Shown: positions 3,421-63,544 of the stretch, one piece after another
How positions within the stretch are numbered: the stretch's first letter is position 1
Layout of the letters: each line of letters starts with the position of its first letter
Translations under genes and position numbers: made by a program
The notes under the pieces: model-generated
What the model saw: the letters and a program-made list of their open reading frames with translations, nothing else
Told to the model about the DNA's origin: nothing
The model's database searches: none
Assembly: GCA_964371445.1 (NCBI GenBank)
Contig: CAYJLK010000002.1
Coordinates: forward strand, 43,718-107,717
DNA from: an uncultured Candidatus Saccharibacteria bacterium
GTDB lineage: Bacteria; Patescibacteriota; Minisyncoccia; Phycocordibacterales; Phycocordibacteraceae
Reading direction: 5' to 3'
DNA: 64,000 nt

Positions 3421-3683
3421 GATGCTTTCTTTACGCCGGGGATCTTCCCCTCCCGCGCGAGCTCGCGGAACTGGATCCGAGAGAGACCGAAAACGCGCAT
3501 ATAGCCGCGAGAGCGGCCGGTAATCGCGCAACGGTTCTTGAGCCGGACCGGCGAGGAGTTCTTTGGGAGCTTCTGCAGGCCTTCAGAATCACCGGCCAAC
3601 TTCAAAGCAGCACGCTTGACCGCGTACTTCTTGACTAGTTTTACCTTTTTGGCATACCGCGCCAGTTGTGATTTCTTAGCCAT
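3414..3683 (-). CDS. rpsN: 30S ribosomal protein S14
   Basis: 89 aa, [20 protein letters not shown]...; operon position between L5 and S8. Confidence 0.85.
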
Positions 3684-3722
3684 GAGAAAAAATAAAGCTC
3701 CGAAGAGCGTATACGTACGATA

Positions 3723-4280
3723 TCACTTGGATACCTTAGAGTCAACGATGAGCGGGAAACCGAGGTGACGGAAGAAGGCCTCGGCCTCGGCCTTCGTTTT
3801 AGCGGTCGTGACGACGGTAATGGCGAGACCAAAGACGTCTTTGAGATCCTCATCGGAGGTTTCGGGGAATATCGTGTTTTCCTTGATGCCCACCGTCATA
3901 TTCCCCATATCGTCGATCGCCGTCGCCTTGAGTCCGCGGAAGTCGCGGGTGCGCGGGAGCGCGATATGGATAAGCTTGTCGAGAAAATCGTACATCCGCG
4001 TCCCCCTAAGGGTGACTTGGAGGCCGACCGTGTCGCCCTCGCGCACTTTAAAGGAGGCAATGGAGAGCTTCGCGGCGCGCGGAGCTGCCTTCTGCCCCGT
4101 GATCTTGGCGAGCCGATCGGAGATGAGCTCGATCTGCTTCTTGTCGCGCTTCTTCCCGACACCGGAGGAGACGATGACCTTCTCTACGCGCGGACCCTGC
4201 ATCGGGCTCGTGTAGCCGAAGAGTTCCGCGAGCGCGAGGTAGGCAGACTGTTGACGCTGTTTGGTAATAGACATATGCAA
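3723..4280 (-). CDS. rplE: 50S ribosomal protein L5
   Basis: 185 aa with L5 motifs (GVGKKRDKKQIELISDRLAKITGQKA, IALPRTRDFRG). Confidence 0.9.
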   Translation of the reverse strand: MHMSITKQRQQSAYLALAELFGYTSPMQGPRVEKVIVSSGVGKKRDKKQIELISDRLAKITGQKAAPRAAKLSIASFKVREGDTVGLQVTLRGTRMYDFLDKLIHIALPRTRDFRGLKATAIDDMGNMTVGIKENTIFPETSDEDLKDVFGLAITVVTTAKTKAEAEAFFRHLGFPLIVDSKVSK

Positions 4281-4547
4281 TTATTTACTCTTGCTCTTGA
4301 CCGGCGCATCGAGTGCGGACACAATCTTCCCCGACGACACGATCTGTACGTTCGATGCGTCGATCGCCCGCGGACGCTCGATGATACGACCGACCTTACC
4401 GGCACTACCTTTCATATGGCGCTTATAGAGTGCGACGCCTTCGACGACGACCGTATTCTCGCGCGGGAACGCGCGCACAACAACGCCGGACGTGCCTTTG
4501 TCCTTGCCGGCGATTACTTTGACCTTGTCTCCTTTTTTAACATGCAT
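4281..4547 (-). CDS. rplX: 50S ribosomal protein L24
   Basis: Trimmed to the internal Met MHVKKGDKVKVIAGKDKG... (KOW motif). The longer ORF-track start would overlap L14. Confidence 0.85.
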   Translation of the reverse strand: MHVKKGDKVKVIAGKDKGTSGVVVRAFPRENTVVVEGVALYKRHMKGSAGKVGRIIERPRAIDASNVQIVSSGKIVSALDAPVKSKSK

Positions 4548-4557
4548 AGATAATGTA

Positions 4558-4935
4558 TTACACGACTTCTGGCGCAAGCGACACGATATTGTGCCAGCCT
4601 CGCTCGGAGAGTTCGCGCGGCACCGGACCGAAGATGCGGTTCCCTTTCGGACCCATCTCCTTACCCTGCTTCTCGATGAGCACGACCGCATTCTCGTCAA
4701 AACGGATATACGAGCCGTCCTTGCGACCAAAGGGCTTCACTTGCCGCACAACGACCGCACGGAAGATGTCCTTCTTCTTCACGGCCTTTCTCGGCGCGGC
4801 GGTCTGGATGGACACGACGACCACGTCCCCGATGCCCGCATAACGGCGCTTGCTGCCGCCGAGCACTTTGAAGATTCTCGCGACTTGTCCGCCGGAGTTG
4901 TCCGCTACTGTAACGATGGATTGAGGTTGCAACAT
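4558..4935 (-). CDS. rplN: 50S ribosomal protein L14
   Basis: 125 aa, MLQPQSIVTVADNSGGQVARIFKVLGGSKRRYAGIGD... matches L14. Confidence 0.92.
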   Translation of the reverse strand: MLQPQSIVTVADNSGGQVARIFKVLGGSKRRYAGIGDVVVVSIQTAAPRKAVKKKDIFRAVVVRQVKPFGRKDGSYIRFDENAVVLIEKQGKEMGPKGNRIFGPVPRELSERGWHNIVSLAPEVV

Positions 4936-4936
4936 A

Positions 4937-5206
4937 TTAGTTTTTCTCCGCCGAGACGGTCTTCGTCGGATCGATAGCGAAACGCTTCAGTTTCGAGATC
5001 GGGCGGGTCGCGACGATCGTCACCGTGTCTCCCACCTGCACCGTATTCCCCGGATCGTGTGCGAGATACTTCTTCGAGCGCACAAAATACTTCTTGTACT
5101 TTGCGTTCTTCACATACCGATCGACCTTGACCGTGGCTGTGTCCTTCATTGCCGTCTTTACGACGACGCCGACGAATGATTGGGGACGAATGATTTTTGT
5201 TTCCAT
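4937..5206 (-). CDS. rpsQ: 30S ribosomal protein S17
   Basis: 89 aa with the typical S17 core (GVVVKTAMKDTATVKVDRYVKNAKYKKY). Confidence 0.9.
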   Translation of the reverse strand: METKIIRPQSFVGVVVKTAMKDTATVKVDRYVKNAKYKKYFVRSKKYLAHDPGNTVQVGDTVTIVATRPISKLKRFAIDPTKTVSAEKN

Positions 5207-5211
5207 ATGAT

Positions 5212-5418
5212 TTATGCGGTCGCGACCTTACGAGAGCGCGCGTGTTGTTCTGTGAGCACACGAGCGATGTTCTTGCGAAGTTTCCTCGGCGCATTCGACT
5301 CTTTCGCGCGCGCGCCAGCGGCCGAAAAGCGCTCCGTGCGAAGTTCAGCGCGCGTATCGGTCAGGATCTTCATAAGCTCCTGGTCAGTCTTGGTCGTCAT
5401 GTGTTCTTTTTTTGTCAT
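5212..5418 (-). CDS. rpmC: 50S ribosomal protein L29
   Basis: 68 aa, KTDQELMKILTDTRAELRTERFSAAGARAKESN; position between L16 and S17. Confidence 0.85.
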   Translation of the reverse strand: MTKKEHMTTKTDQELMKILTDTRAELRTERFSAAGARAKESNAPRKLRKNIARVLTEQHARSRKVATA

Positions 5419-5441
5419 ACAAGTAGGGGAAAAGCAATGAA

Positions 5442-5864
5442 TTAGTGGCGCGTGACAATCGTCGTCTTGACCGGCAATTTCATGCCCGCTTGCCGCATGT
5501 GTGCGCGCGCGACAGTTTCGGGAACGCCGTCCATCTCGAAAAGAATCCTTCCGGGGCGCACCTGAAAGACGTAGTGCTTCGGATCGCCCTTACCGCTGCC
5601 CATGCCCACTTCCGCAGGCTTCGCCGTCACCGGACGATCCGGGAAAATGCGGATCCAGAGCTTGCCGGTCTTCGCGGTGGCGCGCGTCAGCACCTTGCGT
5701 GCCGCCTCGATCTGATTGCTCGTGATGCGCGCAGGCGTGAGCGCCTTCAGCCCGAACGAGCCGAAGGCAATCGTGACCCCGCGCGTATCGGGACGATGCA
5801 GGTTCTTCTCGGAGAGACGTTGGGTCTGCCACTTGCGGTGTTTTACTTTTTTAGGAAACAACAT
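5442..5864 (-). CDS. rplP: 50S ribosomal protein L16
   Basis: 140 aa, [42 protein letters not shown]... Confidence 0.9.
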
Positions 5865-5873
5865 ACTGAAATA

Positions 5874-6602
5874 TTAGCCCTGCCTGCCGTCAGGGAGGCG
5901 CGGGGCGCTTTCCGGCATCGCTACCCTCGTCTTCTTATCCTGGTACACGTTGCCGCGATAGATCCAGACCTTGATGCCGATAACGCCGTACGGCAGATAC
6001 GCCTGCTCATGGGCGAAATCAATATCGGCACGGAATGTCTGAAGCGGAATGCGACCTTTCTTCAACTCCTCCTTGCGGCTCATCTCGGCGCCGCCAAGAC
6101 GACCCGACAGCGCGATGCGTACGCCTTCGACCTCGCGTACGGCGATGACCTTCTCGATCGTCTGCTTCAGCACGCGGCGAAACGGCATGCGCTTCTCCAG
6201 GCCCTCGGCAATCATGAAAGCGACAACTGCGGCATCCGTCTCCGGCTGGCGCACTTCGACAATGTCGAATTTCACCAGTTTACCGGCTGGGAGGGCGTGT
6301 CCAGAAGCCTTACGGACGACATCGGTCAGTTCGGTGCGCAGCTTGGTTGCATTCTCGCCGGAACGACCTATCACGAGACCCGGGCGGGCAGTCGAGAGGA
6401 TAACGCGCAGCTCGTTCGCCGAGCGCTCGATCTCGATGCCGCTCGTGTAGGTGCCGCGCAAACGCTTGCTGAGGAAGCGGCGAATCATCTCATCAACCTT
6501 GATGTTCTCGCGGTAGCTCTTCTTGTCGGTCGTGAACCAACGGCTCTTCCAATCTCGGATGATGCCGAGGCGATGAGCGTAAGGATGTACGGTGTGTGTC
6601 AT
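5874..6602 (-). CDS. rpsC: 30S ribosomal protein S3
   Basis: 242 aa with a KH domain (GIIRDWKSRWF) and a Pro-rich C-terminal tail. Confidence 0.9.
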   Translation of the reverse strand: MTHTVHPYAHRLGIIRDWKSRWFTTDKKSYRENIKVDEMIRRFLSKRLRGTYTSGIEIERSANELRVILSTARPGLVIGRSGENATKLRTELTDVVRKASGHALPAGKLVKFDIVEVRQPETDAAVVAFMIAEGLEKRMPFRRVLKQTIEKVIAVREVEGVRIALSGRLGGAEMSRKEELKKGRIPLQTFRADIDFAHEQAYLPYGVIGIKVWIYRGNVYQDKKTRVAMPESAPRLPDGRQG

Positions 6603-6608
6603 ATAAAT

Positions 6609-6929
6609 TTATGCGAGAGTCACCTTCACCCGACTCTTGCGCCGGCGGATGGCCGAAGCGCGACCGAATGCGCGCGGCATATACTTCTTCAGCATGCCGG
6701 CGCTCTCGACGATGATCGACTGCACCGTAAGCGTCTCGACATTCTGACCCTGACCTTCTGCATTTGCGGCAGCGCTCTTGATGAGTTTCGCGATAGGCTC
6801 TGCGGCGCGGCGCGGCAAAAACTCGAGCGCAGCGAGCGCATCCTTCACCTTCTTTCCTTTCATGAGGTCAGCCACAAGGCGGACCTTGCGGGGCGTCTGA
6901 TTATAGCTCTCGAGGATTGCGCGTGCCAT
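6609..6929 (-). CDS. rplV: 50S ribosomal protein L22
   Basis: 106 aa, MARAILESYNQTPRKVRLVADLMKGKKVKDALAALEF... Confidence 0.9.
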   Translation of the reverse strand: MARAILESYNQTPRKVRLVADLMKGKKVKDALAALEFLPRRAAEPIAKLIKSAAANAEGQGQNVETLTVQSIIVESAGMLKKYMPRAFGRASAIRRRKSRVKVTLA

Positions 6930-6932
6930 ATA

Positions 6933-7280
6933 TTATTTCTTAGCCGCCGGCGCCGGAGATTCCTTCGCCGATTTCGCAGAAGCAATTTCCGCCTGCTGCT
7001 TCTTCATCTCCATATCCTTCTGCATCTTGCCGCCGTGGCGGAGGAATTTCTTTGTCGGCGAGAACTCACCGAGGCGATGTCCTACCATTTCCTCGGAAAC
7101 GAGAACTTCGAGGTGGGACTTCCCGTTATGGACGCCCAGAGTAAAACCGATCATTTCCGGGCTTATCTGGCTCCGGCGCGCCCACGTGTTTATCACCCCG
7201 GCCGTTGCTGGTTTCTTATCGACGAGCTTCTTCAGGAGCTTTGCATCCACGAAGGGCCCTTTCTTAAGTGAGCGTGCCAT
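6933..7280 (-). CDS. rpsS: 30S ribosomal protein S19 with Lys/Ala-rich C-terminal extension
   Basis: 115 aa versus about 92 typical. S19 core ([29 protein letters not shown]) followed by a [23 protein letters not shown] tail. Confidence 0.9.
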
Positions 7281-7344
7281 AAGTAATTAAAAACCCGCGT
7301 GGCGGGATATCCCCAAGATACAGCAATTGTAGGTCATGGTCAAA

Positions 7345-8193
7345 TTAACCCTTACGCTTCTTGCCGACCTTGCGGCGGGAGACGATAAAGACGTTTGAGT
7401 ACTTCTTCGGCGTGCGGGTCTTCTGACCCTTGCCGGTGGGCTTGCCCCACTTGCTCTTCGCCCTGCGGAGCCCGCGCCCCTGCTTACCTTCGCCGCCGCC
7501 ATGCGGATGATCGACCGGATTCATCGCGGTGCCGCGCACCGTCGGGCGGATGCCCATCCAGCGCGAACGGCCGGCCTTTCCGATGACGACGAGATTGTAT
7601 TCTTCGTTGCCGACCGCGCCGATAGACGCCCACGAGAGGTCAGAGACCTTACGGATCTCGGTCGACGGGAGCTTTATCTGCGCATAGCCCGCATCGTGTG
7701 CGACCACCTCGGCATAGTTGCCGGCAGAGCGGACGAGGGAGGCACCCGAAAGCGGAGAAATCTCAATGTTGTAGACGAAGGTGCCGACGGGGATCTTGCC
7801 CAAGGGGAGACGATTGCCCGCGATGAGCGGCGCATTTTCGGAAACGACGAAGGCCGATCCGACTTTAACCTCCTTCGGGAGAATGACGTAGCGGCGCGCG
7901 CCATCGGCATAGAGCGCGAGCCCGATGAAGGCGCTGCGGAACGGGTCGTATTCGACCGTCTCGATTACCGCCGGAATATCCTTCTTATCGTACTTGAAAT
8001 CGACATCGCGGAACCGCTTCTTATGACCACCTCCCTGGTGGCGCGTCGTGATACGGCCGAATGCGTTCCTGCCGCCCTGACTTCCCTTCTTCTTCAGAAG
8101 GGGCTTGTGCGGCGCATGACCTGAAAGAAGCTCCTTGAACGGGAGGGTGGTCATGTGGCGGCGACTCTTGGATGTGGGCTTGTAGGTTTTCAT
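7345..8193 (-). CDS. rplB: 50S ribosomal protein L2
   Basis: 282 aa with L2 motifs (HPHGGGEGK, MNPVDHPHGGGEGK). Confidence 0.92.
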   Translation of the reverse strand: MKTYKPTSKSRRHMTTLPFKELLSGHAPHKPLLKKKGSQGGRNAFGRITTRHQGGGHKKRFRDVDFKYDKKDIPAVIETVEYDPFRSAFIGLALYADGARRYVILPKEVKVGSAFVVSENAPLIAGNRLPLGKIPVGTFVYNIEISPLSGASLVRSAGNYAEVVAHDAGYAQIKLPSTEIRKVSDLSWASIGAVGNEEYNLVVIGKAGRSRWMGIRPTVRGTAMNPVDHPHGGGEGKQGRGLRRAKSKWGKPTGKGQKTRTPKKYSNVFIVSRRKVGKKRKG

Positions 8194-8199
8194 AATAGT

Positions 8200-8571
8200 T
8201 TATGCGAACTGGATACTGTCCCCGGCATTCAGGTAGACATAGGCCTTCGAGCGCGCAGCGCGCGTGCCGGTACCGCGCTTGGTACGCATCATCTTTCGCT
8301 TCGCAGGGAGATGCACGATACGAATCTTGCGCGGGGCCACGTTGTAAATCTCCTTGATGGCGGATGCGATCGAGGCTTTCGTCGCGCGCGGAGTGATCTC
8401 AAAGGCATACACGCCCTTCTCGGTAGCGATGAGCGCCTTTTCAGAGAACCACGGTGCGCGAATAATCTCGTGGGCTACTCCGCTCTCTAGCTTCGCCGTG
8501 CGGGCGCGGCGCTTCACGACGACCTTTGCCTTCTTCTCTTTCTTAGTCTTGCTGGTGCCAAAAAGTGCCAT
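8200..8571 (-). CDS. rplW: 50S ribosomal protein L23 with Lys-rich N-terminal extension
   Basis: 123 aa. The N-term MALFGTSKTKKEKKAKVVVKRRARTAK precedes the L23 core (VIRAPWFSEKA...KIRIVHLPAKRK). Confidence 0.85.
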   Translation of the reverse strand: MALFGTSKTKKEKKAKVVVKRRARTAKLESGVAHEIIRAPWFSEKALIATEKGVYAFEITPRATKASIASAIKEIYNVAPRKIRIVHLPAKRKMMRTKRGTGTRAARSKAYVYLNAGDSIQFA

Positions 8572-8577
8572 GATAAT

Positions 8578-9285
8578 TTATTTAGCTTTCGCGCGGGCGA
8601 GAAGCGCCTTAAACGCCTCCTCCGGCTTCTCGATGATGAGATACTTGTGCGCCATTACATCGACCGGATTCAGGTTGCGCAACTCTTCGGTCATCATGTT
8701 GCCGAAGTTGCTGAAGCTCTTTATCACGTTCGCGTCATAGGCAGCCATCGCGAGAAGCGCAGCATTCTTCGACTTCGTCGCGAGCTTTTCCGCACCCGCG
8801 CCCTTCGCGAGACCGACAATTGCCGCCTTGGCTGCCCTGGTCTTCGGCGCTGAAAAAGCAAACGAGTCGACGAGGATAATCTCGCCGTCCTTGGCCTTCC
8901 GAGAAAGGACCGAGAGGAGCGCGCCGATGCGCATCTTGCGATTGATCTTCTCGCTGTAATTTCGCTCGCTGCGCGGACCAAACGTGATACCGCCGTGGCG
9001 CCAGATCGGCGAGCGGGTCGAGCTATGGCGCGCCTGGCCGGTGCCCTTTTGTTTCCACGGCTTCTTGCCGCCACCCGAGACTTCGGAGCGGTCCTTGGTA
9101 TGGGCACGATTCTGGCGCAGGTTCGCCTGCATCGCAGTCGTGACCTGGTGGACAAGATCGACACGCCACGGTTGGCCGAACAGGCTCTCGGGAAGCGCCA
9201 TGACACCGACTTTTTCGCCGGCCATAGAGAATATCGGTGCCTCAATCGGCACGTATTCTTTTTTCATTTTTTTAGTGACAGTCAT
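8578..9285 (-). CDS. rplD: 50S ribosomal protein L4
   Basis: Trimmed to the internal Met (MTVTKKMKKEYVPIEAPIFSMAGEKVGVMALPESLFG...) so that it does not overlap L3. L4 motifs present (GGGKKPWKQKGTGQARHSS). Confidence 0.85.
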   Translation of the reverse strand: MTVTKKMKKEYVPIEAPIFSMAGEKVGVMALPESLFGQPWRVDLVHQVTTAMQANLRQNRAHTKDRSEVSGGGKKPWKQKGTGQARHSSTRSPIWRHGGITFGPRSERNYSEKINRKMRIGALLSVLSRKAKDGEIILVDSFAFSAPKTRAAKAAIVGLAKGAGAEKLATKSKNAALLAMAAYDANVIKSFSNFGNMMTEELRNLNPVDVMAHKYLIIEKPEEAFKALLARAKAK

Positions 9286-9295
9286 GGTATTCAAA

Positions 9296-9910
9296 TTACG
9301 CAGAGACGACCTCGAGCAGGGTGCCGCGACGACCCGGTACGGCGCCGCTGACGATAATCTCGCCGGCCTTCGCGTCAACCGCGAGAACCTTGAGGTTCGT
9401 CACCGTCACGCGGTCGCTCCCCATGCGGCCAGCCATGCGGATGCCCTTGGCGACGCGACCGCCCGCGCGACCGCCGCTGCCTCCAATCGACCCCGGAGAG
9501 CGCTCGGTGTGCTTCTGCCCGTGAGAACGCGGACCGCCATGGAAGCCGTGGCGCTTCACGACACCGGCGAAGCCCTTGCCCTTCGTGAGACCAGAGACGC
9601 GCACGACATCGCCGACGGCGAAGATAGCGGCATCGATGATGGAACCGACTTCAGCCGATGTGTCTGCGCGGAATTCGCGAATTGCTTCGAAGCCCTTGCC
9701 CTTCGTGTGGCCCAAAACCGCCTTAGAGATATTCTTCGTGCGGCGTTCGCCCATGCCGACCTGAATAGCCGCGTAGGCATCCTTGCCCTCCTTCGTCTTG
9801 ACCTGCGTCACCGTGACCGGGTCGGTCAACAGAATAGTCCCCGCATAGGCGCGACCGTCCGTCCCGAAGATACGGGTCATTTTTTCTTTCTTGGCGAGGA
9901 TGAATTTCAT
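9296..9910 (-). CDS. rplC: 50S ribosomal protein L3
   Basis: 204 aa, MKFILAKKEKMTRIFGTDGRAYAGTILL..., GHTKGKGFEAI. Confidence 0.9.
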   Translation of the reverse strand: MKFILAKKEKMTRIFGTDGRAYAGTILLTDPVTVTQVKTKEGKDAYAAIQVGMGERRTKNISKAVLGHTKGKGFEAIREFRADTSAEVGSIIDAAIFAVGDVVRVSGLTKGKGFAGVVKRHGFHGGPRSHGQKHTERSPGSIGGSGGRAGGRVAKGIRMAGRMGSDRVTVTNLKVLAVDAKAGEIIVSGAVPGRRGTLLEVVSA

Positions 9911-10030
9911 TTTTTAAAGCAAAACGCGCGGATAGCAGACGCTCCGCGCGTTCTGCCATAGGTCCCTCGCACATTTCTCGGGACTTAGCGTTAGGGGCAC
10001 TCTACCCTACCGCTGCAAAAGATGCAAATC

Positions 10031-10546
10031 TTACTCCCTTCTGTCTCTTAGTTTGTTTCCCATATCTTTTCGAGCAATCTCAATCTGTTCTGGGGTGACG
10101 CGAAGCTCGCCCTTCACCTCTTCTGCTCCTGTCCTACGCATTTCTTCCTCAACGATACCTCGTGACTTCGTGTATGCTTCTTCACTCTGTTCCTTCTCCA
10201 TCTCTGCGCCCGAGGAGAAAAGCTTTGCCTCTTTCTTTAAAGCTTTTGCATTCAGAGCAGCACCCATTCCTGTGAAAATACCTCCAGCACCAGCTAAGGG
10301 GTTGCCGGTGAGGGTTGCCGCAACTCCAAGTGAAGTCGCGACGGCTGAAATTCCAAGTGAAGCCTTAGCCATGGTTCTCTTCTTTTTTGCGTCTATTTCC
10401 ATCTCCTTGCTATCTTCTGCACGCATGTCTCCAACATGAGCCGCCGTGACAAATTCTCTTCGCTTCTCTCTCGGAACGAATGGCTCGTCCTTTCTGTTTG
10501 GTATTTTTTCCATGCCCATGAGTATACCACCGGCAAAAACACACAA
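10031..10546 (-). CDS. hypothetical protein inserted between rpsJ and rplC
   Basis: 171 aa with a Gly/Ala-rich hydrophobic segment (ASLGISAVATSLGVAATLTGNPLAGAGGIFTGMGAAL) flanked by charged Lys/Glu-rich regions. No recognisable family. Local GC is visibly lower than the flanking ribosomal genes. Confidence 0.5.
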   Translation of the reverse strand: MCVFAGGILMGMEKIPNRKDEPFVPREKRREFVTAAHVGDMRAEDSKEMEIDAKKKRTMAKASLGISAVATSLGVAATLTGNPLAGAGGIFTGMGAALNAKALKKEAKLFSSGAEMEKEQSEEAYTKSRGIVEEEMRRTGAEEVKGELRVTPEQIEIARKDMGNKLRDRRE

Positions 10547-10641
10547 CCGCCCTTATGGGCGGTTGTGTTCCGCGGAGCCACGCCCGCTTATTGTTTAAGT
10601 TAGGACAGACTCGCAGCTTTTTGTGTTTTCTTGGTCGTCGC

Positions 10642-11058
10642 TTAAACCATTTTCACATCTATCGTGACGCCGCTTGGGAGATTGAGGTTCGTGAGGGCCT
10701 CGATTACCTTCGGGGAGGGGTTCATGATGTCGATGAGGCGCTTATGGACGCGCATCTCGAACTGCTCTCTCGCGTCCTTATGGACGAAGGTCGAGCGGTT
10801 GACTGTCCAACGCTTGATCTCGGTCGGAAGCGGCACAGGTCCGACGACCGTCGCGTCGAAACGCGCTGCGGTGTCCATAATCTGCTTTACCGAGAGATCG
10901 AGAATCTTGTGCTCATAGGCACGGACGCGGATGCGGAGCTTGTGCTCCACCGGGACCACTGCGGCTACCTTCTTCGCGGCGCGCTTGCCCTCCGTAGCTT
11001 TCGCGGAGGAGGACTTCGGAGCGGCCTTCGCTTTCGGTTTTGCTGTCGCTGTTGCCAT
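10642..11058 (-). CDS. rpsJ: 30S ribosomal protein S10 with Lys/Ala-rich N-terminal extension
   Basis: 138 aa versus about 102 typical. About 35 aa of KPKAKAAPKSSSAKATEGKRAAKK precede the S10 core (KLRIRVRAYEHKILDLSVKQIMD...). Confidence 0.9.
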   Translation of the reverse strand: MATATAKPKAKAAPKSSSAKATEGKRAAKKVAAVVPVEHKLRIRVRAYEHKILDLSVKQIMDTAARFDATVVGPVPLPTEIKRWTVNRSTFVHKDAREQFEMRVHKRLIDIMNPSPKVIEALTNLNLPSGVTIDVKMV

Positions 11059-11080
11059 ATGAGTAATAATCCAGCCTGGC

Positions 11081-12280
<1,200 letters not shown>

Positions 12281-12442
12281 ATCGGTTAATTTATTCTGTT
12301 AAATCACGAATAATTCCGACGTGAGTCGGAACAAACTCCTAAGCTTGCCGACTCACAAAAGCAGACAAGCCAAAGAGCGACGCCAAGATGCGTTACCTAT
12401 GAATGTACCCGAGCCCGCCTAAAAGTGCAAGAGTTTGGAAAA

Positions 12443-12470
12443 GAAAAAAGCGGAAGGGTTCCCTCCGCTT
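12443..12470 (-). terminator. rho-independent terminator for the minus-strand gene at 12495-12860
   Basis: Hairpin agcggaaggg-ttc-cctccgct preceded on the + strand by aaaaaa, which is the U-run on the minus strand. Confidence 0.5.
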
Positions 12471-12494
12471 TGTGGCGCCTCTGGCGCCGGTGCT

Positions 12495-12860
12495 TCATGC
12501 TTTTTTTGCCTCTTCCTTGGCTTTCGGCTTGACGGCTTCGGCCTTTGCCGGCTTCGCGTCGGCGGGCTTGGCGTCTTTTGCCTTCTTGACCTTCTTGGCC
12601 TTTTTCGCCTTCTTGTCTTTCTTGACTTCTTTCTTGTCGACCTTGGCGACCGCAGTCTTGGCGACGGCCTGGGACTTGTCGGCCTTGGCTGCAGCGAGCG
12701 TCGGCGCCGGCGTTGGCGGCTTGACGGTCACGGCCTTGACGGTGGCGGTCTGGGTCTTACCGTCCTGGGCGGCGGCGGCCGGCAGGGCGAGGGCGGAAGC
12801 TATGGCGATGGACGAAAGGAACAATAATGTGCGTTTCACTTGAACCTCCTTTGGGAACAC
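12495..12860 (-). CDS. small secreted Lys/Ala-rich low-complexity protein (histone H1-like tail composition)
   Basis: 121 aa. Signal peptide MFPKEVQVKRTLLFLSSIAIASALALPAAAAQ, then KKAKKAKKVKKAKDAKPADAKPAKAEAVKPKAKEEAKKA. Confidence 0.55.
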   Translation of the reverse strand: MFPKEVQVKRTLLFLSSIAIASALALPAAAAQDGKTQTATVKAVTVKPPTPAPTLAAAKADKSQAVAKTAVAKVDKKEVKKDKKAKKAKKVKKAKDAKPADAKPAKAEAVKPKAKEEAKKA

Positions 12861-12984
12861 CCAACAATTATGGGTACCCCGGATACTACACCTCTTTTGT
12901 TCCTTGTAAAGGACCCTTCGAACACAGCGGCCGCCCCCCCGGGCGGCCGCTGTGTGTGCATAAGGATATGCTAGTCTTTATGTT

Positions 12985-13167
12985 ATGGAGATATTGATTG
13001 GCTTGGTTCTGGCGATTTTAGGAATTCCGCTCTTAGTATTTGGGATTCTGATGTTTATTAAATCGGACGGTTGGCTCTTTTTCACTAAAGCACTATTAGT
13101 AATCCTCATTGGTCTCTTGTTATCCACGACATCCTTTGTATTTCTGAGCGACGGGTTTGGGTTTTGA
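12985..13167 (+). CDS. tiny two-TM membrane protein
   Basis: 60 aa, almost entirely hydrophobic (ILIGLVLAILGIPLLVFGILMF ... ALLVILIGLLLSTTSFVFL). Lies in an AT-rich patch. Confidence 0.4.
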   Translation: MEILIGLVLAILGIPLLVFGILMFIKSDGWLFFTKALLVILIGLLLSTTSFVFLSDGFGF

Positions 13168-13191
13168 TGGAATTTCTTACTTACTACTTAA

Positions 13192-13491
13192 ATGAATACT
13201 GAAATTCGTAATGCCATAATTAAGTTGTTCGACAAACATGCGAGTCGTTCTCAAGATTGGTTAGTGTCGGAGATTCGTGATTTGGGGTTAGTCGATACAG
13301 ATGGTAGAGAAGTTGTCCGAACAATAGGGTTGATGGAAGATGCGGGAGAATTGCAGAAATTAGATATAGGGGTTTATCGACTTACTCTCAAAGCGATAGA
13401 AGCAGAGGCTCCTTGGTTACAAAAATGCAAAAATTATATAATCAAGAATTGGCTCGCTTTAGTGGCACTGATTATCGCCCTATTTAAGTAA
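13192..13491 (+). CDS. hypothetical small protein with C-terminal TM anchor
   Basis: 99 aa ending NWLALVALIIALFK; AT-rich; no recognisable domain. Confidence 0.45.
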   Translation: MNTEIRNAIIKLFDKHASRSQDWLVSEIRDLGLVDTDGREVVRTIGLMEDAGELQKLDIGVYRLTLKAIEAEAPWLQKCKNYIIKNWLALVALIIALFK

Positions 13492-13509
13492 CGCGGTTTT
13501 TGAAGCCTT

Positions 13510-15657
13510 TTATTTGCGCGATGCGATGATGTCGTCCGCGACGTTCTTCGGGACCGTATCATAATGATCGAACTCCATCGTCATCGAGCCACGGCCTTCG
13601 GTCATCGAGCGAAGCGTGGTGGTGTAGCCGAACATTTCAGAAAGCGGGACCTTCGCGTGGACTACCTTGTTCATGCCGCGCTCTTCCATACCTTCTATCT
13701 GAGCGCGCTTGCCGGAGAGATTGCCGGTGATGTCGCCCATGAACTGATCCGGCACGATGACTTCGACGCGCATGATCGGTTCGAGGATGACCGGCTTCGC
13801 CTTCTGTGCCGCTTCCTTAAACGCCATCGAAGCCGCAATCTTGAAGGCGATTTCCGACGAGTCGACATCGTGGTAACTGCCGTCGTAGAGGTCGACTGAG
13901 ACGTCGACCATCGGGAAGCCGGCGAGGAAGCCGCGCGACATCGCTTCGCGGAGCCCCTTCTCCACTGGTGTGATGAACTCCTGAGGAATGACACCGCCCT
14001 TGATGTTGTTGATGAATTCGAAATGATCCTCGCGCATGACGTTCTTTGCAACCTTCTTCTCCGGATCCACCGGTTCCATCTTTTTCATGCGGATCTTCAC
14101 ATGACCATACTGGCCGCGGCCGCCGGTCTGCTTGATGTACTTCCCTTCCGCCTCCGAAGATCCGAGAATCGTCTCGCGATACGCCACTTGCGGCTTTCCT
14201 ACATCGGCAACAACGTTGAACTCGCGCTTCATACGGTCGACGAGAATTTCCAAATGCAGTTCGCCCATGCCTGAGATGATGGTCTCGTTCGTCTCTTCAT
14301 CAGTCTTGATGCGGAAGGTCGGGTCCTCATCCGAGAGCTTGCGTAGCGCAACACCCATCTTCTCCTGATCGGCCTTGGTCTTGGGCTCGATGCGAAGCGA
14401 TACCACCGGCTCGGGGAACTTGATCTCCTCGAGCATGATCGGATTCGCTTCATCGCAGAGCGTGTGCGACGTTTTCGTATCTTTGAGGCCGACGGCGGCG
14501 GCAATCTCGCCCGTGAACACCTGGGAGACTTCTTCGCGCTTATCGGCCTGGAGCCGGACGATGCGGCTAATGCGCTCTTTAGAGCCTGTCGTCGAGTTAT
14601 AGACGTACGAGCCGGCGGTGAGCGTGCCCGAATACACACGGAAGAAGGTCAGCGCGCCGACGAACGGGTCGGTCTGGAGCTTGAAGGCGAGCGCGCAGAA
14701 CGGCTCGTCGTCGTTTGCATGGCGTTCGATCGGCTCACCGGTCTTCGGGTTCGTGCCGGTGGCGGGCGGGAGGTCGAGCGGAGACGGGAGATAGTCGACG
14801 ACGGCGTCGAGCACGAGCTGGACGCCTTTGTTCTTAAGCGCCGAGCCCGTGTATACCGGGAAGACTTCGTTTGCGATGACCGCCTTGCGTAATATATTTT
14901 TCAATTCATCCACGCTCGGCTCTGTGCCCTCGAGGTACGCGCCCATCGCGGCATCATCGTTCTCGACGATGCGTTCGACGAGCTCGGCACGATACTTCTT
15001 CGCGTCTTCGAGAAGATTCGCCGGTATGTCCCCTTCGATGACATCCTCACCCATATTCCCCGAAAAGGTATATGCCTTCATCGTGAGCAGGTCGACGCAC
15101 CCTTCATGTGCGGACTCTTCGCCGATAGGGATCTGCATGCGAATAGCCTTCGGCGAGAGCCGATCGAGGATGCTCGCGTAGGAACGCTCGAAGGATGCTC
15201 CCGTGCGATCGAGCTTGTTGATGAAGCAGACACGCGGCACCTGAGCCTCGTCGGCATAACGCCAGTTGGTCTCGGACTGCGGCTCCACGCCCGCGACACC
15301 GTCGAAGACGACGATAGCACCGTCAAGCACGCGCATCGAGCGCTTCACTTCAGCAGTGAAATCGATATGTCCCGGCGTGTCGATAACATTGAAACGGAAT
15401 TTCTTCGCCGTATCCTTCTTGTCCTTCTCGCCCGTCTTCGTCCAGAAACAGGTGATAGCGGCGGCGGTGATGGTGATGCCGCGTTCGCGCTCCTGTTCCA
15501 TCCAGTCGGTGGTCGTCTCGCCCTCATGCACCTCGCCGATCTTGTGCTGAGAACCCGTATAGAAAAGGACGCGCTCGCTGGTGGTCGTCTTCCCCGCGTC
15601 AATGTGCGCGATGATGCCGAAATTGCGTACTTTCTCGAGCGGATAGTCTCTGTTCAT
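13510..15657 (-). CDS. fusA: elongation factor G
   Basis: Trimmed to [26 protein letters not shown] (ATG at 15657). Full EF-G domain set through the C-terminus. Confidence 0.93.
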
Positions 15658-15786
15658 AAAATGGGTAAAAAATAAAAGCGCCGTGGCGTTATTGCTAAGA
15701 CTACTACCAAACGAGCTGAGTGACAAATGCGTGTCTGCACATATTTGTCCGAAGCGAGTGCAGGGAGGAAGCTCGGCTCTGCGAGC

Positions 15787-16251
15787 TTACCAAGCGAAAT
15801 GGGCAAAGGCCTTGTTCGCGTCCGCCATGCGGTGCATCTCATCCTTCTTCTTGATCGCGTCGCCTTCGTTCTTGGCGGCGAGGAGAAGTTCGGCGGCGAG
15901 CTTCTCGGCCATCGGCTTCCCTTTCTTCGCGCGCGCAGCGCCGATGAGCCAGCGGAAGGAGAGCGCCAGGCGGCGGGACTGCGGGACTTCACGTGGCACC
16001 TGGTAGTTGGCGCCGCCGACGCGGCGGGAACGCACTTCCATAAGCGGCGAGACGTTGCGAAGCGCGGATTCAAACGTCTCAAGCGGGTTTGCACCGCCCT
16101 TCTCTATCTCAGCGAGAGCGCCATAGACAACAGCGCGTGCCGTATCCTTCTTCCCGCTCCACATAACGGCATTGATGAAACGAGTCAGCGTCTCAGAACC
16201 GTACTTGAGGTCCGGTCGCCAGGTGCGCTTTTTCTTTAACGGACGTCTCAT
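15787..16251 (-). CDS. rpsG: 30S ribosomal protein S7
   Basis: Trimmed to MRRPLKKKRTWRPDLKYGSETLTRFINAVMWSGKK.... The start overlaps the S12 stop. Confidence 0.9.
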   Translation of the reverse strand: MRRPLKKKRTWRPDLKYGSETLTRFINAVMWSGKKDTARAVVYGALAEIEKGGANPLETFESALRNVSPLMEVRSRRVGGANYQVPREVPQSRRLALSFRWLIGAARAKKGKPMAEKLAAELLLAAKNEGDAIKKKDEMHRMADANKAFAHFAW

Positions 16252-16252
16252 A

Positions 16253-16660
16253 TTACTTCGGGCGCTTCGCACCGTAACGCGAACGCGAACGACGGCGCTT
16301 CTCGATGCCGCTCGTGTCGAGCTTGCCGCGTATAATGGTGTACTGCACGCCGATATCCTTCACGCGGCCGCCGCGAAGCATCACCACCGAGTGTTCCTGG
16401 AGGTTGTGCCCTTCGCCGGGGATGTAGGCCGTAACTTCCATCCCGTTCGTGAGGCGGACACGGGCGATCTTGCGGATAGCGGAGTTCGGCTTTCTCGGGG
16501 TCTTCGTCGTCACCTTGGTGCAGACGCCGCGCTTGAAGGGAGAGGGATAGAACGTCGGACGATTCGAGAGTGCATTAAAACCGCGAGCAAGCGCCGGCTT
16601 GCTCGTCTTCGACGATTTCGACTTGCGGCCCTTCTTGGAGAGCTGATTGATGGTAGACAT
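16253..16660 (-). CDS. rpsL: 30S ribosomal protein S12
   Basis: Trimmed to [17 protein letters not shown]... (ATG at 16660). The ORF-track upstream extension is Arg/Pro-rich read-through. Confidence 0.9.
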
Positions 16661-16730
16661 GTATTTGAAAACCCGCGAACGCGGGATAGAGGCACTATAT
16701 ATAATAGTGCGACAGAACGCAACTCCGACG

Positions 16731-53339: not shown

Positions 53340-53759
53340 ATGAAATTCACCATCCATGCCGACGGGGGAGCACGGGGGAACCCGGGACCAAGCGGTGCAG
53401 GCGCGGTCGTGCGCGACGAGTTCGGCAGTATCGTCGCGAGCGTTTCAAAATTTCTCGGTCACCGCACAAATAATTTCGCCGAGTACGAGGCGGTCATCCT
53501 CGCCTTTGAGGAACTCCTGAAGCTCGTGCCGAGCGCCGAGCGCGAGCTCACCGATGTGACGGTAAAAATGGACAGCGAGCTGGTAGTGAAGCAGATGAAA
53601 AAAGAATACAAAGTGCGGCATCCGGTCCTCAAAGAACAGCAGGCGCGCCTCGCGCAGGTCGCCGGCGCCTTCGGCACGGTGACCTTCATGCACGTCTTCC
53701 GCGAAGAAAATTCCGACGCCGACGCCCTCGCCAACGAAGCGATGGACCGTGGTGCATAA
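53340..53759 (+). CDS. rnhA: ribonuclease HI
   Basis: MKFTIHADGGARGNPGPSGAG...NNFAEYEA...; ATG at 53340 just after the recJ stop. Confidence 0.85.
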   Translation: MKFTIHADGGARGNPGPSGAGAVVRDEFGSIVASVSKFLGHRTNNFAEYEAVILAFEELLKLVPSAERELTDVTVKMDSELVVKQMKKEYKVRHPVLKEQQARLAQVAGAFGTVTFMHVFREENSDADALANEAMDRGA

Positions 53760-54231
53760 TCTTAAGAACATGATTTCTACTTCAACAATGCAAGTTTTGG
53801 TTCCATCACTTTCAGCTCTTGTTGGGGCAGTAATAGGTGCGACTGCGGCTCTTGCGGGTGTACGTTGGCAAATTATTGCCGATCATAAACAAAAACGAGA
53901 TGAACAAATTTTTAACGCTCGTCGTGATGTTTATGCAGAAATAATGAGCATTCTGAATTATTCATTTTTAAAAGGGAAAGATTTAAATGCTGCACTTTCG
54001 GATCCGCATTTTAAAACGCAGGTGTCGATACATATGGGGGACTGTTTCAGCCGGGCGAGACCAATTGCAGGTTTAAGGCTCAGTGAAAAACTCCGTGAAC
54101 TTTATGGGGCGGAGATGCTTTTGTGGAAGCCTGAAAATACCGGTGAAAACACCGAGTTGGATAAAAAACGTGCTGCGCTGGCGAACGAAGTTGAGATCCT
54201 TATTCGTGAAGACCTTGGTATAACGGATTAA
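53749..54231 (+). CDS. hypothetical N-terminally anchored protein in an AT-rich segment
   Basis: 160 aa with a TM (VLVPSLSALVGAVIGATAALAGV). No family. Local GC is markedly lower than the genome. Confidence 0.5.
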   Translation: MVHNLKNMISTSTMQVLVPSLSALVGAVIGATAALAGVRWQIIADHKQKRDEQIFNARRDVYAEIMSILNYSFLKGKDLNAALSDPHFKTQVSIHMGDCFSRARPIAGLRLSEKLRELYGAEMLLWKPENTGENTELDKKRAALANEVEILIREDLGITD

Positions 54232-61635: not shown

Positions 61636-62663
61636 CCTCTTGCAAGAGGCGCTATACTAGACGCATGCGTTCTGGTCTCCTCACCATTCTCACTGCCGCC
61701 CTCATGCTCCCCGGTATAGCTGCCGCCCAGGTGTTTGCCGACCTGGGAATAAGCGACACCGCGTCCTTCAATCTCTCCGCCATTCCTCAGTACCCGGTGC
61801 CCTACGGCAAGGTGTCCCTCTCCTTCCTTTCAGGTTCTATCGAGCTAACGAGCGCGACCTTGACCGTTTCCGCAAACGGAAAAGACATATACCGAGGCTC
61901 GGTACAGCCGGTCTCTGTCACGCTCGGAAAGGCGGGGAGCGTAACAAATGTGACGGCGATTATATCTGCCGGCGGCGAGAAATACACTCAGACACTCCGC
62001 ATCCAACCCCAAGACGTCGCGCTCATCGCCGAACCGATCTCCTTCGCGCCCCCGCTCTATCCCGGGAAACCGCTCGTACCACTCGACGGGACTGTGCGCG
62101 TCGTCGCTATGGCGAATCTGAAAAATGTCAGCGGAAAGTCGCTCGACCCCGCGACACTCTCCTACGCATGGGTCGTCGACAACATGCAGATCGCAAACTC
62201 CTCGGGCATCGGCAAGACGGCAATCATGGTCGCCTCGCCGCTTCAGTACCGCAGTCGCGATGTTGCGGTCTCGGTCATGAGCGCCGACGGGAGCCACGTC
62301 GGGGGCGCATCGCTCTCGCTCTCGTCCCTCGAGCCTTCGATACGCCTCTATGAAAATGACCCCTTGCTCGGCATTCGTTTCAACCGCGCCCTTTCGGGCG
62401 CATACTCCATCATGAACGCCGAGTCTTCGCTCTATGCCGCTCCATTTTCGCTCCCGACCCAGCGTGGAGCGCCGCTTATCCAGTGGTTCTTAAACGGAGA
62501 ACCAGCACAGACTGGCGGCTCCATAACCCTGCGACCGACGGGAAGCGGGCAGGGGAGCGCCTCGCTCTCGCTCACTGCCTCCTCAGGGGAGTATGCAAAG
62601 GCGACTGCGAACCTCTCCCTCAAGTTCGGTGAAAAACCCGAATTTAATTTCTTCGGATTATGA
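61632..62663 (+). CDS. secreted protein, hypothetical (T4SS-cluster associated)
   Basis: Signal peptide MRSGLLTILTAALMLPGIAAAQ from Met12 (61665), then a Ser/Thr/Ala-rich beta-type domain. The stop TGA overlaps the next ATG (ATGA). Confidence 0.6.
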   Translation: MTSCKRRYTRRMRSGLLTILTAALMLPGIAAAQVFADLGISDTASFNLSAIPQYPVPYGKVSLSFLSGSIELTSATLTVSANGKDIYRGSVQPVSVTLGKAGSVTNVTAIISAGGEKYTQTLRIQPQDVALIAEPISFAPPLYPGKPLVPLDGTVRVVAMANLKNVSGKSLDPATLSYAWVVDNMQIANSSGIGKTAIMVASPLQYRSRDVAVSVMSADGSHVGGASLSLSSLEPSIRLYENDPLLGIRFNRALSGAYSIMNAESSLYAAPFSLPTQRGAPLIQWFLNGEPAQTGGSITLRPTGSGQGSASLSLTASSGEYAKATANLSLKFGEKPEFNFFGL

Positions 62664-62741
62664 ACCCCGTTAGAAATCACGAACAAAATATGAAAGATAA
62701 AAATGTGGCAGGAAGTCGCATGGGTTCTATTTCTAACGGGG
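62660..62741. repeat. second copy of the inverted-repeat element ATGAACCCCGTTAGAAAT-N51-ATTTCTAACGGG-GTG
   Basis: Arms at 62665-62677 and 62729-62740. Same arm sequence, spacing and flanking ATGAA / RTG as the ppa copy. Spacer sequences are unrelated. Confidence 0.6.
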
Positions 62742-63544
62742 TGAAGAAAACGACGCTCATTCTCTCTGTTCTCTCATTTTTCGCGCTCGCCTCGACCGCC
62801 TTTGCACAAGGATTCGTCCCGCTCGCACCGATACCCGGTCTCACCGAGGGCGCGACAGCAGACACGGCTGGTCTCGCGAACTTCTTCAACAACCTCTACA
62901 AATATCTCATCGGTCTCGCTGCTGCGCTCGCTGTCATTGAAATCATCTGGGGCGGACTTGAAATATCGACACAGGATTCGGTGAGCAAGAATAAAGACGG
63001 GAAGGATCGTATCTATCAGGCGATCTTCGGCCTTGTCCTCGTCCTCTCGCCAGTGCTTGTCTTCTCCATCATCAATCCGAGTATTCTGAATCTCTCATTG
63101 AATCTCCAGAAGCTGGATACAGCATCCACAGCACCAAGTCCAGTACCAAGTGGAACGGGAACAGGGGACACAACCACAGCGACTGCAGCTGGATGCTCTG
63201 TGTCACTTAATCAAGGCGTTGTTGGTTGCCCGACTCAAGCAGCAGCTGATGCCTGGGTTAGTTCATGTTCGAACGGCACTGGGCGCGTGTATCTATCAAA
63301 TGAAGCTTCGTTACCTTATGCGGCAACCTGTAACGTCTTGCAACCATTTCGGGGAAACCAAAATTATACTGACAAGACAACGATCCCAGCAGGGCTGTGG
63401 TGTTTCAAGACCGAAGATGCCAACAAGCCCAACACTATTGTTTACACCTGCGGTGCAAGTAAAGACGCCTGCGACACCCTCGCTATGCGTCCTCCTCTAG
63501 GAGGACGTGTCTTCGCCGATTGTGCAAGCCCTCCTCCTAATTAA
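62660..63544 (+). CDS. pilin-like (VirB2/TrbC-like architecture) secreted protein with Cys-rich C-terminal domain
   Basis: Signal peptide, two hydrophobic helices (LANFFNNLYKYLIGLAAALAVIEIIWGG; IFGLVLVLSPVLVFSII), Thr-rich linker, 8 Cys in the last about 110 aa. Start ambiguous among ATG 62660 (coupled), ATG 62720 (AGGAAG SD) and GTG 62741. Confidence 0.55.
   Translation: MNPVRNHEQNMKDKNVAGSRMGSISNGVKKTTLILSVLSFFALASTAFAQGFVPLAPIPGLTEGATADTAGLANFFNNLYKYLIGLAAALAVIEIIWGGLEISTQDSVSKNKDGKDRIYQAIFGLVLVLSPVLVFSIINPSILNLSLNLQKLDTASTAPSPVPSGTGTGDTTTATAAGCSVSLNQGVVGCPTQAAADAWVSSCSNGTGRVYLSNEASLPYAATCNVLQPFRGNQNYTDKTTIPAGLWCFKTEDANKPNTIVYTCGASKDACDTLAMRPPLGGRVFADCASPPPN

Follow-up and report, generated by a model that had tools for sequence, protein, structure and literature searches.

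The rpsJ-rplC junction of an uncultured Patescibacteria contig: a predicted operon boundary with a candidate attenuator leader and a putative accessory membrane-protein gene

The genes encoding ribosomal proteins S10 (rpsJ) and L3 (rplC) are normally contiguous within the str-S10-spc cluster, a textbook case of conserved gene order that is used as a phylogenetic marker block. In a contig of an uncultured Candidatus Saccharibacteria bacterium (CAYJLK010000002.1, assembly GCA_964371445.1), they are separated by 731 nt that include an open reading frame (ORF). What is this ORF, and what does its position say about the operon? The whole stretch analysed (64,000 nt; positions 43,718 to 107,717 of the forward strand of the contig) is referred to as the window, and all coordinates given are those of the window. 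A preliminary description, made from the letters of the window, proposed two answers: a lineage-specific ribosome-associated or membrane protein co-expressed with ribosomal proteins (r-proteins), or a small insertion that splits the operon at an otherwise invariant junction. The reading favoured here (probability of about 0.62 for the whole) is that the junction is an operon boundary, that rplC is preceded by an attenuator-type leader and that the ORF is an accessory cargo gene encoding a membrane protein. The split of the S10 operon between rpsJ and rplC, and the undescribed rplC leader with its predicted terminator/antiterminator architecture, are more notable than the ORF itself. The rpsJ-rplC spacer corresponds exactly to 9911-10641; its features and the two flanking genes are listed below in the direction of transcription.

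10642-11058, minus strand: rpsJ (S10), 138 aa; Pfam Ribosomal_S10 PF00338 (1.8e-33) and NCBIfam rpsJ_bact equivalogs.
10541-10568, minus strand: predicted rpsJ terminator hairpin (10535-10568 with its U-run); 12-bp perfect GC-rich stem and 4-nt loop, found by terminator scan, as inverted repeat and by folding.
10521-10526, minus strand: -10-like hexamer TATACT, 7 nt upstream of the ATG at 10513 and 1 nt upstream of the ATG at 10519.
10031-10519, minus strand: ORF, 162 aa, or 160 aa from 10513; member of a small uncharacterised family.
10247-10363, minus strand: Gly/Ala/Ser/Thr-rich uncharged segment of the ORF (residues 53-91) with a central G-N-P turn; predicted hairpin tip, putative membrane-inserting paddle.
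9999-10027, minus strand: putative rplC promoter; -35 TTGCAT, 17-nt spacer, -10 TAGAGT.
9911-9992, minus strand: rplC 5' leader, ~81 nt from the predicted transcription start; delimited by alignment, RNAalifold and covariation.
9962-9984, minus strand: leader hairpin P1, flanked by the conserved ACGCUAAG and CCUAUGGCA; apex of variable length, covarying stem.
9932-9959, minus strand: early hairpin, putative antiterminator; the 5' arm of the terminator pairs with the apical sequence.
9916-9957, minus strand: predicted leader terminator (attenuator) hairpin, an inverted repeat, with UUUUGCUUU; ends 5 nt before the rplC AUG.
9296-9910, minus strand: rplC (L3), TIGR03625 L3_bact (1.5e-58); first gene of the rplC-rplD-rplW-rplB... 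unit.

The minus strand carries the cluster, which reads fusA (13510-15657), tuf (11081-12280), rpsJ, ORF, rplC, rplD, rplW, rplB, rpsS and onward, with rpsJ located 22 nt downstream of tuf. The tuf-rpsJ unit would end at the strong intrinsic terminator behind rpsJ, and the rplC-rplD-... unit would restart from its own promoter, TTGCAT-N17-TAGAGT, and its leader. The preliminary description had supposed that the two gaps on either side of the ORF may carry their own signals, and this is what is predicted: the rpsJ terminator and the -10-like hexamer on one side, the rplC promoter and leader on the other. These signals are shared with related genomes, whose loci are designated here by L numbers. 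L3 proteins of up to 88% identity come from metagenome-assembled genomes (MAGs) that bear the labels Candidatus Kaiserbacteria, Paceibacterota or Patescibacteria, which places the organism among the Kaiserbacteria-like bacteria of the candidate phyla radiation. GC-rich hairpins of 8-21 bp, some of them near-identical, were found within ~100 nt of the rpsJ stop codon in nearly all relatives with an L3 identity of at least 70%. The elements TTGCAT and TAGAGT or TATAGT, separated by a 17-nt spacer of variable sequence, are found directly upstream of rplC in more than 30 related species; the pattern occurs once in the window, versus 0.05 expected by chance. In the ORF-less relatives with the shortest gaps (L009, L015, L022 and L023; 159-170 nt), only the rpsJ terminator abutting the -35 is found, followed by the leader; L009, with 87% L3 identity, has the same terminator and promoter as the window. 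Since terminator, promoter and leader are kept in these close relatives, the junction is, as judged from sequence, an operon boundary in this Kaiserbacteria-like clade, independent of the ORF. The ORF is thus not an insertion that splits the operon. Confidence in this architecture is high.

Nor is the junction invariant in this clade. Over 75 loci, the rpsJ-rplC gap was found to range from 1 to 2589 nt. Among the 39 distant relatives (L3 identity of 50-60%), 12 have the classical tight joint (at most 35 nt); among the 22 closest (at least 70%), the gap is never shorter than 159 nt and reaches at least 520 nt in 16. The cargo measures up to 2.3 kb within the clade, and more distant relatives reach as much as 2.6 kb. 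The genes inserted are a 491-aa CarboxypepD_reg surface protein (L014), a bacterial sugar transferase (Bac_transf, L016), an NYN nuclease plus others (L017), DoxX (L029), a PaaX/Cas2-like protein (L045), a DDE transposase (L067), a DUF559 endonuclease (L083) and a ParE toxin pair (L085); at many other loci, ORFs without any family match are inserted. The gap is therefore a variable cargo hotspot whose inserted genes are mutually unrelated. The few bases between terminator and -35 would tolerate insertions, and unrelated cargo would land there. As in other hotspots of variable cargo (islets at fixed positions), conserved flanks, here the rpsJ terminator and the rplC promoter, bracket unrelated genes that include toxin-antitoxin, nuclease and transposase genes. 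Unlike typical islets, the gap lies inside the ribosomal cluster, mostly holds one or two cargo genes and has no integrase, tRNA or repeat signature. Transposon-like ends were not found either in the window: the border inverted repeats are the two terminator hairpins only, and the interval contains no flanking direct repeats and no recombinase. No tRNA was found in the 120-nt gap between the ORF as first delimited and rplC, and Rfam and tRNA scans found no 23S rRNA within the window. A whole clade of the candidate phyla radiation (CPR) thus appears to cut the S10 cluster between S10 and L3, to restart it with a dedicated leader and to tolerate variable cargo at the cut.

Two side observations concern the cargo region of relatives. 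In L019, L037 and L097, the first ~65 nt after the rpsJ stop codon hold a common element. Ahead of the terminator, it closes with the rpsJ 3' end repeated once more (...AATGGTTTAA), and either a minor duplication or an inserted mobile sequence may account for it. In L096 (801-908) and L037 (3383-3670), antisense frames give similar peptides (…PIPESxxxxLxGPIGHxVEPxP…) without any Rfam match; the similarity points to a conserved nucleotide element in the cargo region of the junction.

The leader that restarts the cluster has a constant order of elements: the conserved ACGCUAAG; P1 with its variable apex; a conserved CCUAUGGCA or CCUCCAGCA; and a long hairpin followed by UUUUGCUUU, ending 5 nt before the AUG. 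Covariation was analysed on a MAFFT alignment of 23 distinct leaders, with 500 shuffles and slid controls. In the consensus structure, 93.7% of the cells are paired and 10 of the 18 pairs show compensatory changes; none of the 500 shuffles was as good, and slid controls did not exceed 50%. Both sides change in 4/5 pairs of P1 (helix 1), and 6/13 pairs of the terminator hairpin (helix 2) are compensatory. The terminator fold of the window has a free energy of -37.5 kcal/mol (z = -4.3). A covariance model of the leader (R1) matches the window once, at 9909-10004 (84.6 bits); in relatives, every strong match lies directly upstream of rplC, and weaker ones are found in more distant Paceibacteria. 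None of the 4227 models of Rfam 15 matches the leader at the gathering threshold, and permissive Rfam scans of the window region and six relatives gave only chance-level matches to unrelated families (E of at least 0.03).

A second fold competes with the terminator. When the transcript is truncated ahead of the terminator's 3' arm, an early hairpin is predicted in 23/23 leaders (-10 to -15 kcal/mol), built from the 5' base of the terminator stem (GGCAGAACGC or AGCAAAUCGC) and the terminator's apical sequence (GCGUCUGC or GCGAUUGC). Shuffling the inner sequence leaves only -4 to -5 kcal/mol (p <= 0.01 each). In an independent alignment, pairing holds in 96.4% of the early-hairpin cells, versus at most 35% for slid controls, and double-sided changes occur in three pairs (AU/GC, UA/AU). 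A leader cannot form this hairpin together with the full terminator (-18 to -34 kcal/mol across leaders). Another candidate, a GCU/AGC pairing at the base of P1 competing with the base of the terminator, was dropped: its columns are invariant, and covariation is uninformative either way. Taken together, the leader looks like a two-state transcription attenuator, and confidence in attenuation is moderate. The early hairpin and the terminator would compete during transcription, and a factor bound to P1 and its junction would decide between them. For this ligand, L4 would by analogy be the prime candidate, or else another protein of the operon.

The analogy is with the S10 leader of Escherichia coli, a ~170-nt RNA upstream of rpsJ that exerts L4-mediated, NusA-dependent transcription attenuation as well as translational control. 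Like it, the leader of the window lies 5' of a unit encoding L3, L4, L23, L2 and the following genes, and has a conserved hairpin upstream, then a terminator hairpin close to the first cistron; feedback by an r-protein encoded in the operon would be the expected logic here as well. It differs by its location upstream of rplC, since rpsJ is transcribed with tuf here, by its length (~81 nt versus ~170 nt) and by the lack of any Rfam match. In addition, it has a conserved alternative hairpin in competition with the terminator, a device that the E. coli leader is not known to employ. The rplC leader would most likely be an r-protein-responsive attenuator that acts in the manner of the E. coli L4/S10 leader without belonging to its family. 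A structured leader located directly upstream of rplC-rplD-rplW-rplB, for which L4 was also proposed as ligand by analogy, has been described as an L4 r-leader candidate in Archaeoglobi (Eckert & Weinberg 2020, PMC7247131). That leader is archaeal and comes from another RNA family; the study reports an L4-type leader upstream of rplC for Archaeoglobi only, and none for Patescibacteria/CPR. No CPR r-leader and no insertion in the S10 operon were found in the literature. With the rplC leader, r-protein feedback in uncultivated bacteria has a concrete candidate that can be tested.

A simpler possibility is that the hairpin before rplC is the plain terminator of the upstream gene, or a 5' stabilising stem-loop, in either case unregulated. 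The genomes that carry the ORF have no other terminator for it, the ligand of the leader is a candidate by analogy only, and the terminator is far more stable than the early hairpin; all this would suit an unregulated structure. However, the hairpin lies downstream of the conserved rplC promoter and is therefore inside the rplC transcript, and relatives with a separate terminator directly upstream of the -35 still keep the leader hairpin. Moreover, the conserved apical sequence retains its pairing with the 5' arm, with compensatory changes that would be superfluous in a plain terminator. This explanation is thus considered unlikely, though worth keeping in mind.

Other structured elements were noticed around gene starts of the ribosomal cluster. 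In some relatives (L089:696-893, L037:3800-4000, L043:3826-4000), a conserved element of ~200 nt, absent from the window, lies between the rplC leader and the ATG; RNAalifold gives 44 pairs, 10 of them compensatory across the three sequences, and there is no Rfam match. In the window, short GC hairpins with U-runs were found directly upstream of the starts of rpsL (16667-16685), fusA (15667-15687), rpsS (7289-7306) and rpsN (3687-3708), all on the minus strand; they may be further attenuator-type leaders.

Is the ORF itself a gene? The list of frames gives it as 10031-10546 on the minus strand, 171 aa from a TTG, with gaps of 95 and 120 nt to its neighbours, as the preliminary description had it. 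This start is rejected: the TTG sits within the stem of the rpsJ terminator (10541-10568) and the homologues all begin with M(G/N)MEK or MEN, so that the true start is probably the ATG at 10519 (162 aa) or at 10513 (160 aa). An exhaustive HMMER search (phmmer; 1.84 billion protein representatives, E <= 1e-3) retrieved 21 full-length proteins, i.e. the cluster representative of the window protein itself and 20 relatives, of 150-194 aa, aligned end to end (nearest relative 5e-23). In an alignment of the 20 full-length homologues (A1), identity to the window protein is 24-42%. Conserved in A1 are an N-terminal FVPxEKQxEF, the central uncharged stretch, SRxIVxEGM..GA and TPEQIEIARKEM. The family profile matches a single frame of the window, the ORF (3.6e-57), and there is therefore no paralogue in the window. 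A profile search with A1 added almost nothing new, and a metagenome scan for the family added one new genomic context and two duplicates. A word-index search of 5.8 billion proteins retrieved matches from the same species only; the identical protein is present on 23 contigs of one ENA study.

That the ORF is a chance frame in a non-coding spacer could be argued from the latter search and from the lack of a curated family. The preliminary description would have accepted a spacer in case of no conservation, no coding signature (codon bias, Ka/Ks) and absence from close relatives. Most close relatives do lack the ORF, but its homologues conserve it, and the spacer is refuted by the 20 diverged full-length homologues of matching length, their motifs, the confident structural model described below and the frame-specific profile. 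It can practically be dismissed. The ORF is a real protein-coding gene, conserved and lineage-restricted. Curated resources do not name it: no Pfam or NCBIfam family was found above threshold and PHROGs gave sporadic weak matches only, the sub-threshold matches in these three libraries being compositional (DUF6249, SctB, endolysin, tape measure); a sequence search of the PDB turned up nothing beyond marginal coiled-coil or low-complexity matches that appear compositional (best E 0.0013); and no relative was found in viral contigs or in BFVD.

The lower GC content noted at the outset is borne out by comparison with the flanking r-protein genes: 0.487 for the ORF versus 0.55-0.63, and 0.448 versus 0.67-0.77 at third codon positions (GC3), most other long ORFs of the window having a GC3 of ~0.6-0.77. 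The same holds in every host of the family (GC 0.45-0.51 and GC3 0.31-0.45, versus a GC3 of 0.56-0.80 for flanking genes), so that the composition of the family is foreign-looking in all hosts. The ratio dN/dS was unusable: copies from the same species differ by one codon and the other homologues are saturated. In the syntenic species, identity is 35-49% for the ORF and 72-83% for L3. The family appears either to evolve fast or to move between genomes, and the data choose neither. Two further long ORFs of low GC3 relative to the background of ~0.6-0.77, 53749-54231 (0.34) and 62660-63544 (0.50), were noticed in the window and are possibly foreign or accessory.

How would such a gene be expressed at this site? 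In the syntenic homologues, the gene starts within ~25 nt of the rpsJ terminator and its stop codon lies 0-3 nt before the rplC -35 (3 nt in the window), with no terminator between. A TATAAT-like hexamer is found 6-9 nt before the ATG in L013, L089, L091, L093, L097, L088 and L096, and is conserved in eight loci when the window is included. A -10 element located ~6-8 nt before the start codon is the classical signature of leaderless genes. The TATACT of the window may accordingly be a leaderless-type promoter that serves the ORF. An extended -10 (TGn) was considered and dropped: it is present in the window and inconsistent across homologues. The ORF would be transcribed from this -10, 7 nt before the ATG, as a leaderless mRNA. 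As it has no terminator of its own, its transcripts would enter the rplC leader, and would end or read through at the attenuator. Behind a strong terminator and with an apparent -10 of its own, the ORF can be only partially co-expressed with the r-proteins.

Inspection of orthologous junctions shows how sporadic the ORF is: among 80 loci of related genomes, it is carried by one only (L013), and unrelated genes are found elsewhere. Among the ~12 distinct contexts of the family, six are adjacent to S10 and/or L3 (the window; L013/L100; L089; L091/92; L093-95/L101; L097), and in a seventh (L102), TTGCAT directly follows the stop codon. More distant members, some of them with longer leaders, are off this site: L090 lies behind a ParE/YafQ toxin pair, L088 near a GIY-YIG gene and L098/L099 beside membrane-protein genes. 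A core ribosomal-protein role is unlikely: most close relatives lack the ORF and have unrelated genes in its place, and more distant members of the family lie in non-ribosomal contexts. The expectations for a clade-wide ribosomal protein are likewise contradicted by its presence at 1/80 loci and by the lack of any r-protein family match in Pfam and NCBIfam. The cargo of the window would thus be a gene of 160-162 aa from a small, fast-evolving family restricted to these bacteria.

The predicted protein gives some indications on its mode of action. The AlphaFold2 model built with A1 (predicted local distance difference test, pLDDT, 86.3; predicted template modelling score, pTM, 0.70) shows a long antiparallel hairpin of helices 17-70 and 74-129, a small beta-hairpin and a C-terminal helix. 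The Gly/Ala hydrophobic stretch with charged flanks of the preliminary description is confirmed: residues 53-91 contain no charged residue and are 64% Gly, Ala, Ser or Thr, and Asp, Glu, Lys and Arg make up 36% of the whole protein. Across the family, the hairpin tip is a segment of 30-43 residues; in most members it is uncharged and 50-75% of it is Gly, Ala, Ser or Thr. A G-x-P turn lies at its centre, and the flanking sequence is ~30-36% charged. The PADLOC profile LeoBC is matched colinearly by 7/21 members at positions ~442-558 of 601 (E 1e-7 to 1e-4; weak scores), versus 0/10 reversed sequences of the same composition. In LeoB, a membrane-binding domain lies between the middle domain and the GED, and the paddles of dynamin-like proteins are hydrophobic and glycine-rich (PMC4159319). 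The bacterial dynamin-like proteins LeoB/LeoBC and BDLP1 may share with the predicted protein a helical hairpin stalk with a Gly-rich hydrophobic tip, which binds membranes in dynamins (PMC4159319), and the shape of the model agrees. They differ from it in that the ORF is only 160-162 aa long and has no GTPase, neck or GED domain: Pfam, NCBIfam and the model, an all-helical hairpin, reveal no GTPase domain, and the LeoBC matches start at profile position ~405-445 only. For this reason, the LeoBC match is taken as a hint at the mode of action and not as family membership; in the PDB, neither sequence nor fold searches point to dynamins in particular. PspA, Vipp1 and ESCRT-III proteins have no sequence similarity to the ORF and, unlike it, no Gly/Ala-rich uncharged tip; any long coiled-coil hairpin scores alike. 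LeoBC is the only consistent lead among the profiles searched. The protein is probably membrane-associated, with a membrane-binding or -inserting stalk that resembles the trunk and paddle of bacterial dynamin-like proteins in the model; confidence in its precise function is low. The family nevertheless offers a small, tractable helical-hairpin protein that may bind membranes and has no annotation anywhere.

Several points weigh against the whole reading, that of an operon boundary with an attenuator leader and an accessory membrane-protein cargo. Promoters, transcription starts, leaderless initiation and termination are predictions. The -10 of the ORF has no recognisable -35, and the hexamer could be an A/U-rich translation enhancer acting on read-through transcripts, since none of the r-protein genes examined in the cluster has a Shine-Dalgarno sequence (none recognisable before ~25 r-protein genes at 3680-16660, the starts of which are preceded by A/U-rich sequence). 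The maximum KD19 of the tip is 1.3-2.0, borderline for a transmembrane segment. The low GC3 might stem from expression level or from a Lys/Glu-rich composition and not from a horizontal origin; the divergences of the ORF and of L3 do not correlate (r = -0.2, 10 pairs, star-like), so that vertical and horizontal histories are indistinguishable. Finally, the recurrence of the family at one site in at least six species, always between terminator and -35, could mean a functional tie to the r-protein operon and not a neutral insertion. This last point leads to the protein being associated with the ribosome or translation in this lineage, for example as a membrane tether held beside rpsJ/rplC by co-regulation. 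In E. coli, YqjD and ElaB are membrane tethers for ribosomes. The family stays beside rpsJ and/or rplC in these species despite an ORF identity of 35-49%, the transcripts of the terminator-less ORF would enter the rplC leader, and strongly charged helices with a hydrophobic anchor would fit a tether. Yet the ORF is missing from most close relatives, including L009, and unrelated genes occupy the same site; distant members neighbour toxin-antitoxin or membrane-protein genes and not r-protein genes; the ORF lies behind a strong terminator, with a codon usage unlike that of r-protein genes; and in Pfam and NCBIfam searches, neither DUF883/YqjD nor any r-protein family resembles it. Such a role is improbable. 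Of the first answer of the preliminary description, the restriction to a lineage stands and a membrane protein is plausible; a core ribosomal role is disfavoured, and co-expression is at most partial.

The ORF could also be mobile defence or toxin cargo, i.e. a small membrane-perturbing protein, dynamin-paddle- or holin-like, that spreads among Patescibacteria. The company it keeps would agree with this: ParE, NYN, DUF559, a Cas2-like PaaX and a transposase occur in the same hotspot of relatives, and members lie beside the ParE/YafQ pair (L090) and the GIY-YIG gene (L088). So would a GC3 that stays low, unlike that of every host, and the LeoBC matches of 7/21 members with none in the reversed control, although these matches are limited to stalk and paddle. 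But the junction loci contain no GTPase or antitoxin partner gene, and no recombinase or flanking direct or inverted repeats; moreover, no relatives were found in viral contigs or BFVD, and PHROGs matches are sporadic and weak. A defence or toxin role is considered improbable. Accessory, non-ribosomal cargo of plausibly membrane-associated type therefore remains the preferred description of the ORF within the reading given above. A wider proposal joins all parts: an undescribed class of r-protein-sensing attenuators in Kaiserbacteria-like CPR, together with a shift of S10 control from rpsJ to rplC that would have created a landing gap for mobile genes, including a stand-alone dynamin-paddle-like family. 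It is put forward tentatively, at somewhat less than even odds. The observations bear on the evolution of r-protein operons, on the annotation of MAGs and on the regulation of r-proteins in reduced genomes in which no Shine-Dalgarno sequence is visible in the cluster.

Minor observations were made on the flanking genes. S10 carries an N-terminal Lys/Ala-rich extension of 37 residues (MATATAKPKAKAAPKSSSAKATEGKRAAKKVAAVVPV..., 10948-11058), the length of which differs among relatives. L30 (rpmD) is absent between rpsE and rplO in the window. Upstream of tuf, a promoter-like TTGCAC-N17-TACATT (12402-12430, minus strand) is found just behind a terminator (12443-12471); its hexamers resemble those of the rplC promoter, it is separated from the tuf ATG by a strongly structured leader of ~120 nt, and it fits a separate tuf-rpsJ transcription unit. 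The fusA-tuf junction (12281-13509) is also interrupted, and its local GC falls to 0.40. It contains a Lys/Ala-rich ORF of 114-121 aa (12495-12860, minus strand), the only nearby gene with a clear Shine-Dalgarno sequence, and two low-GC ORFs on the plus strand: 12985-13167 (60 aa, hydrophobic) and 13192-13491 (99 aa, GC3 0.36). In a contig of the same species (L004, ENA ERZ13693048 NODE_1360), no fusA is called at 4690-7010 between rpsG and the downstream ORFs, and short minus-strand ORFs are found instead; this would be an artefact of assembly or frameshifting, or else a variant strain.

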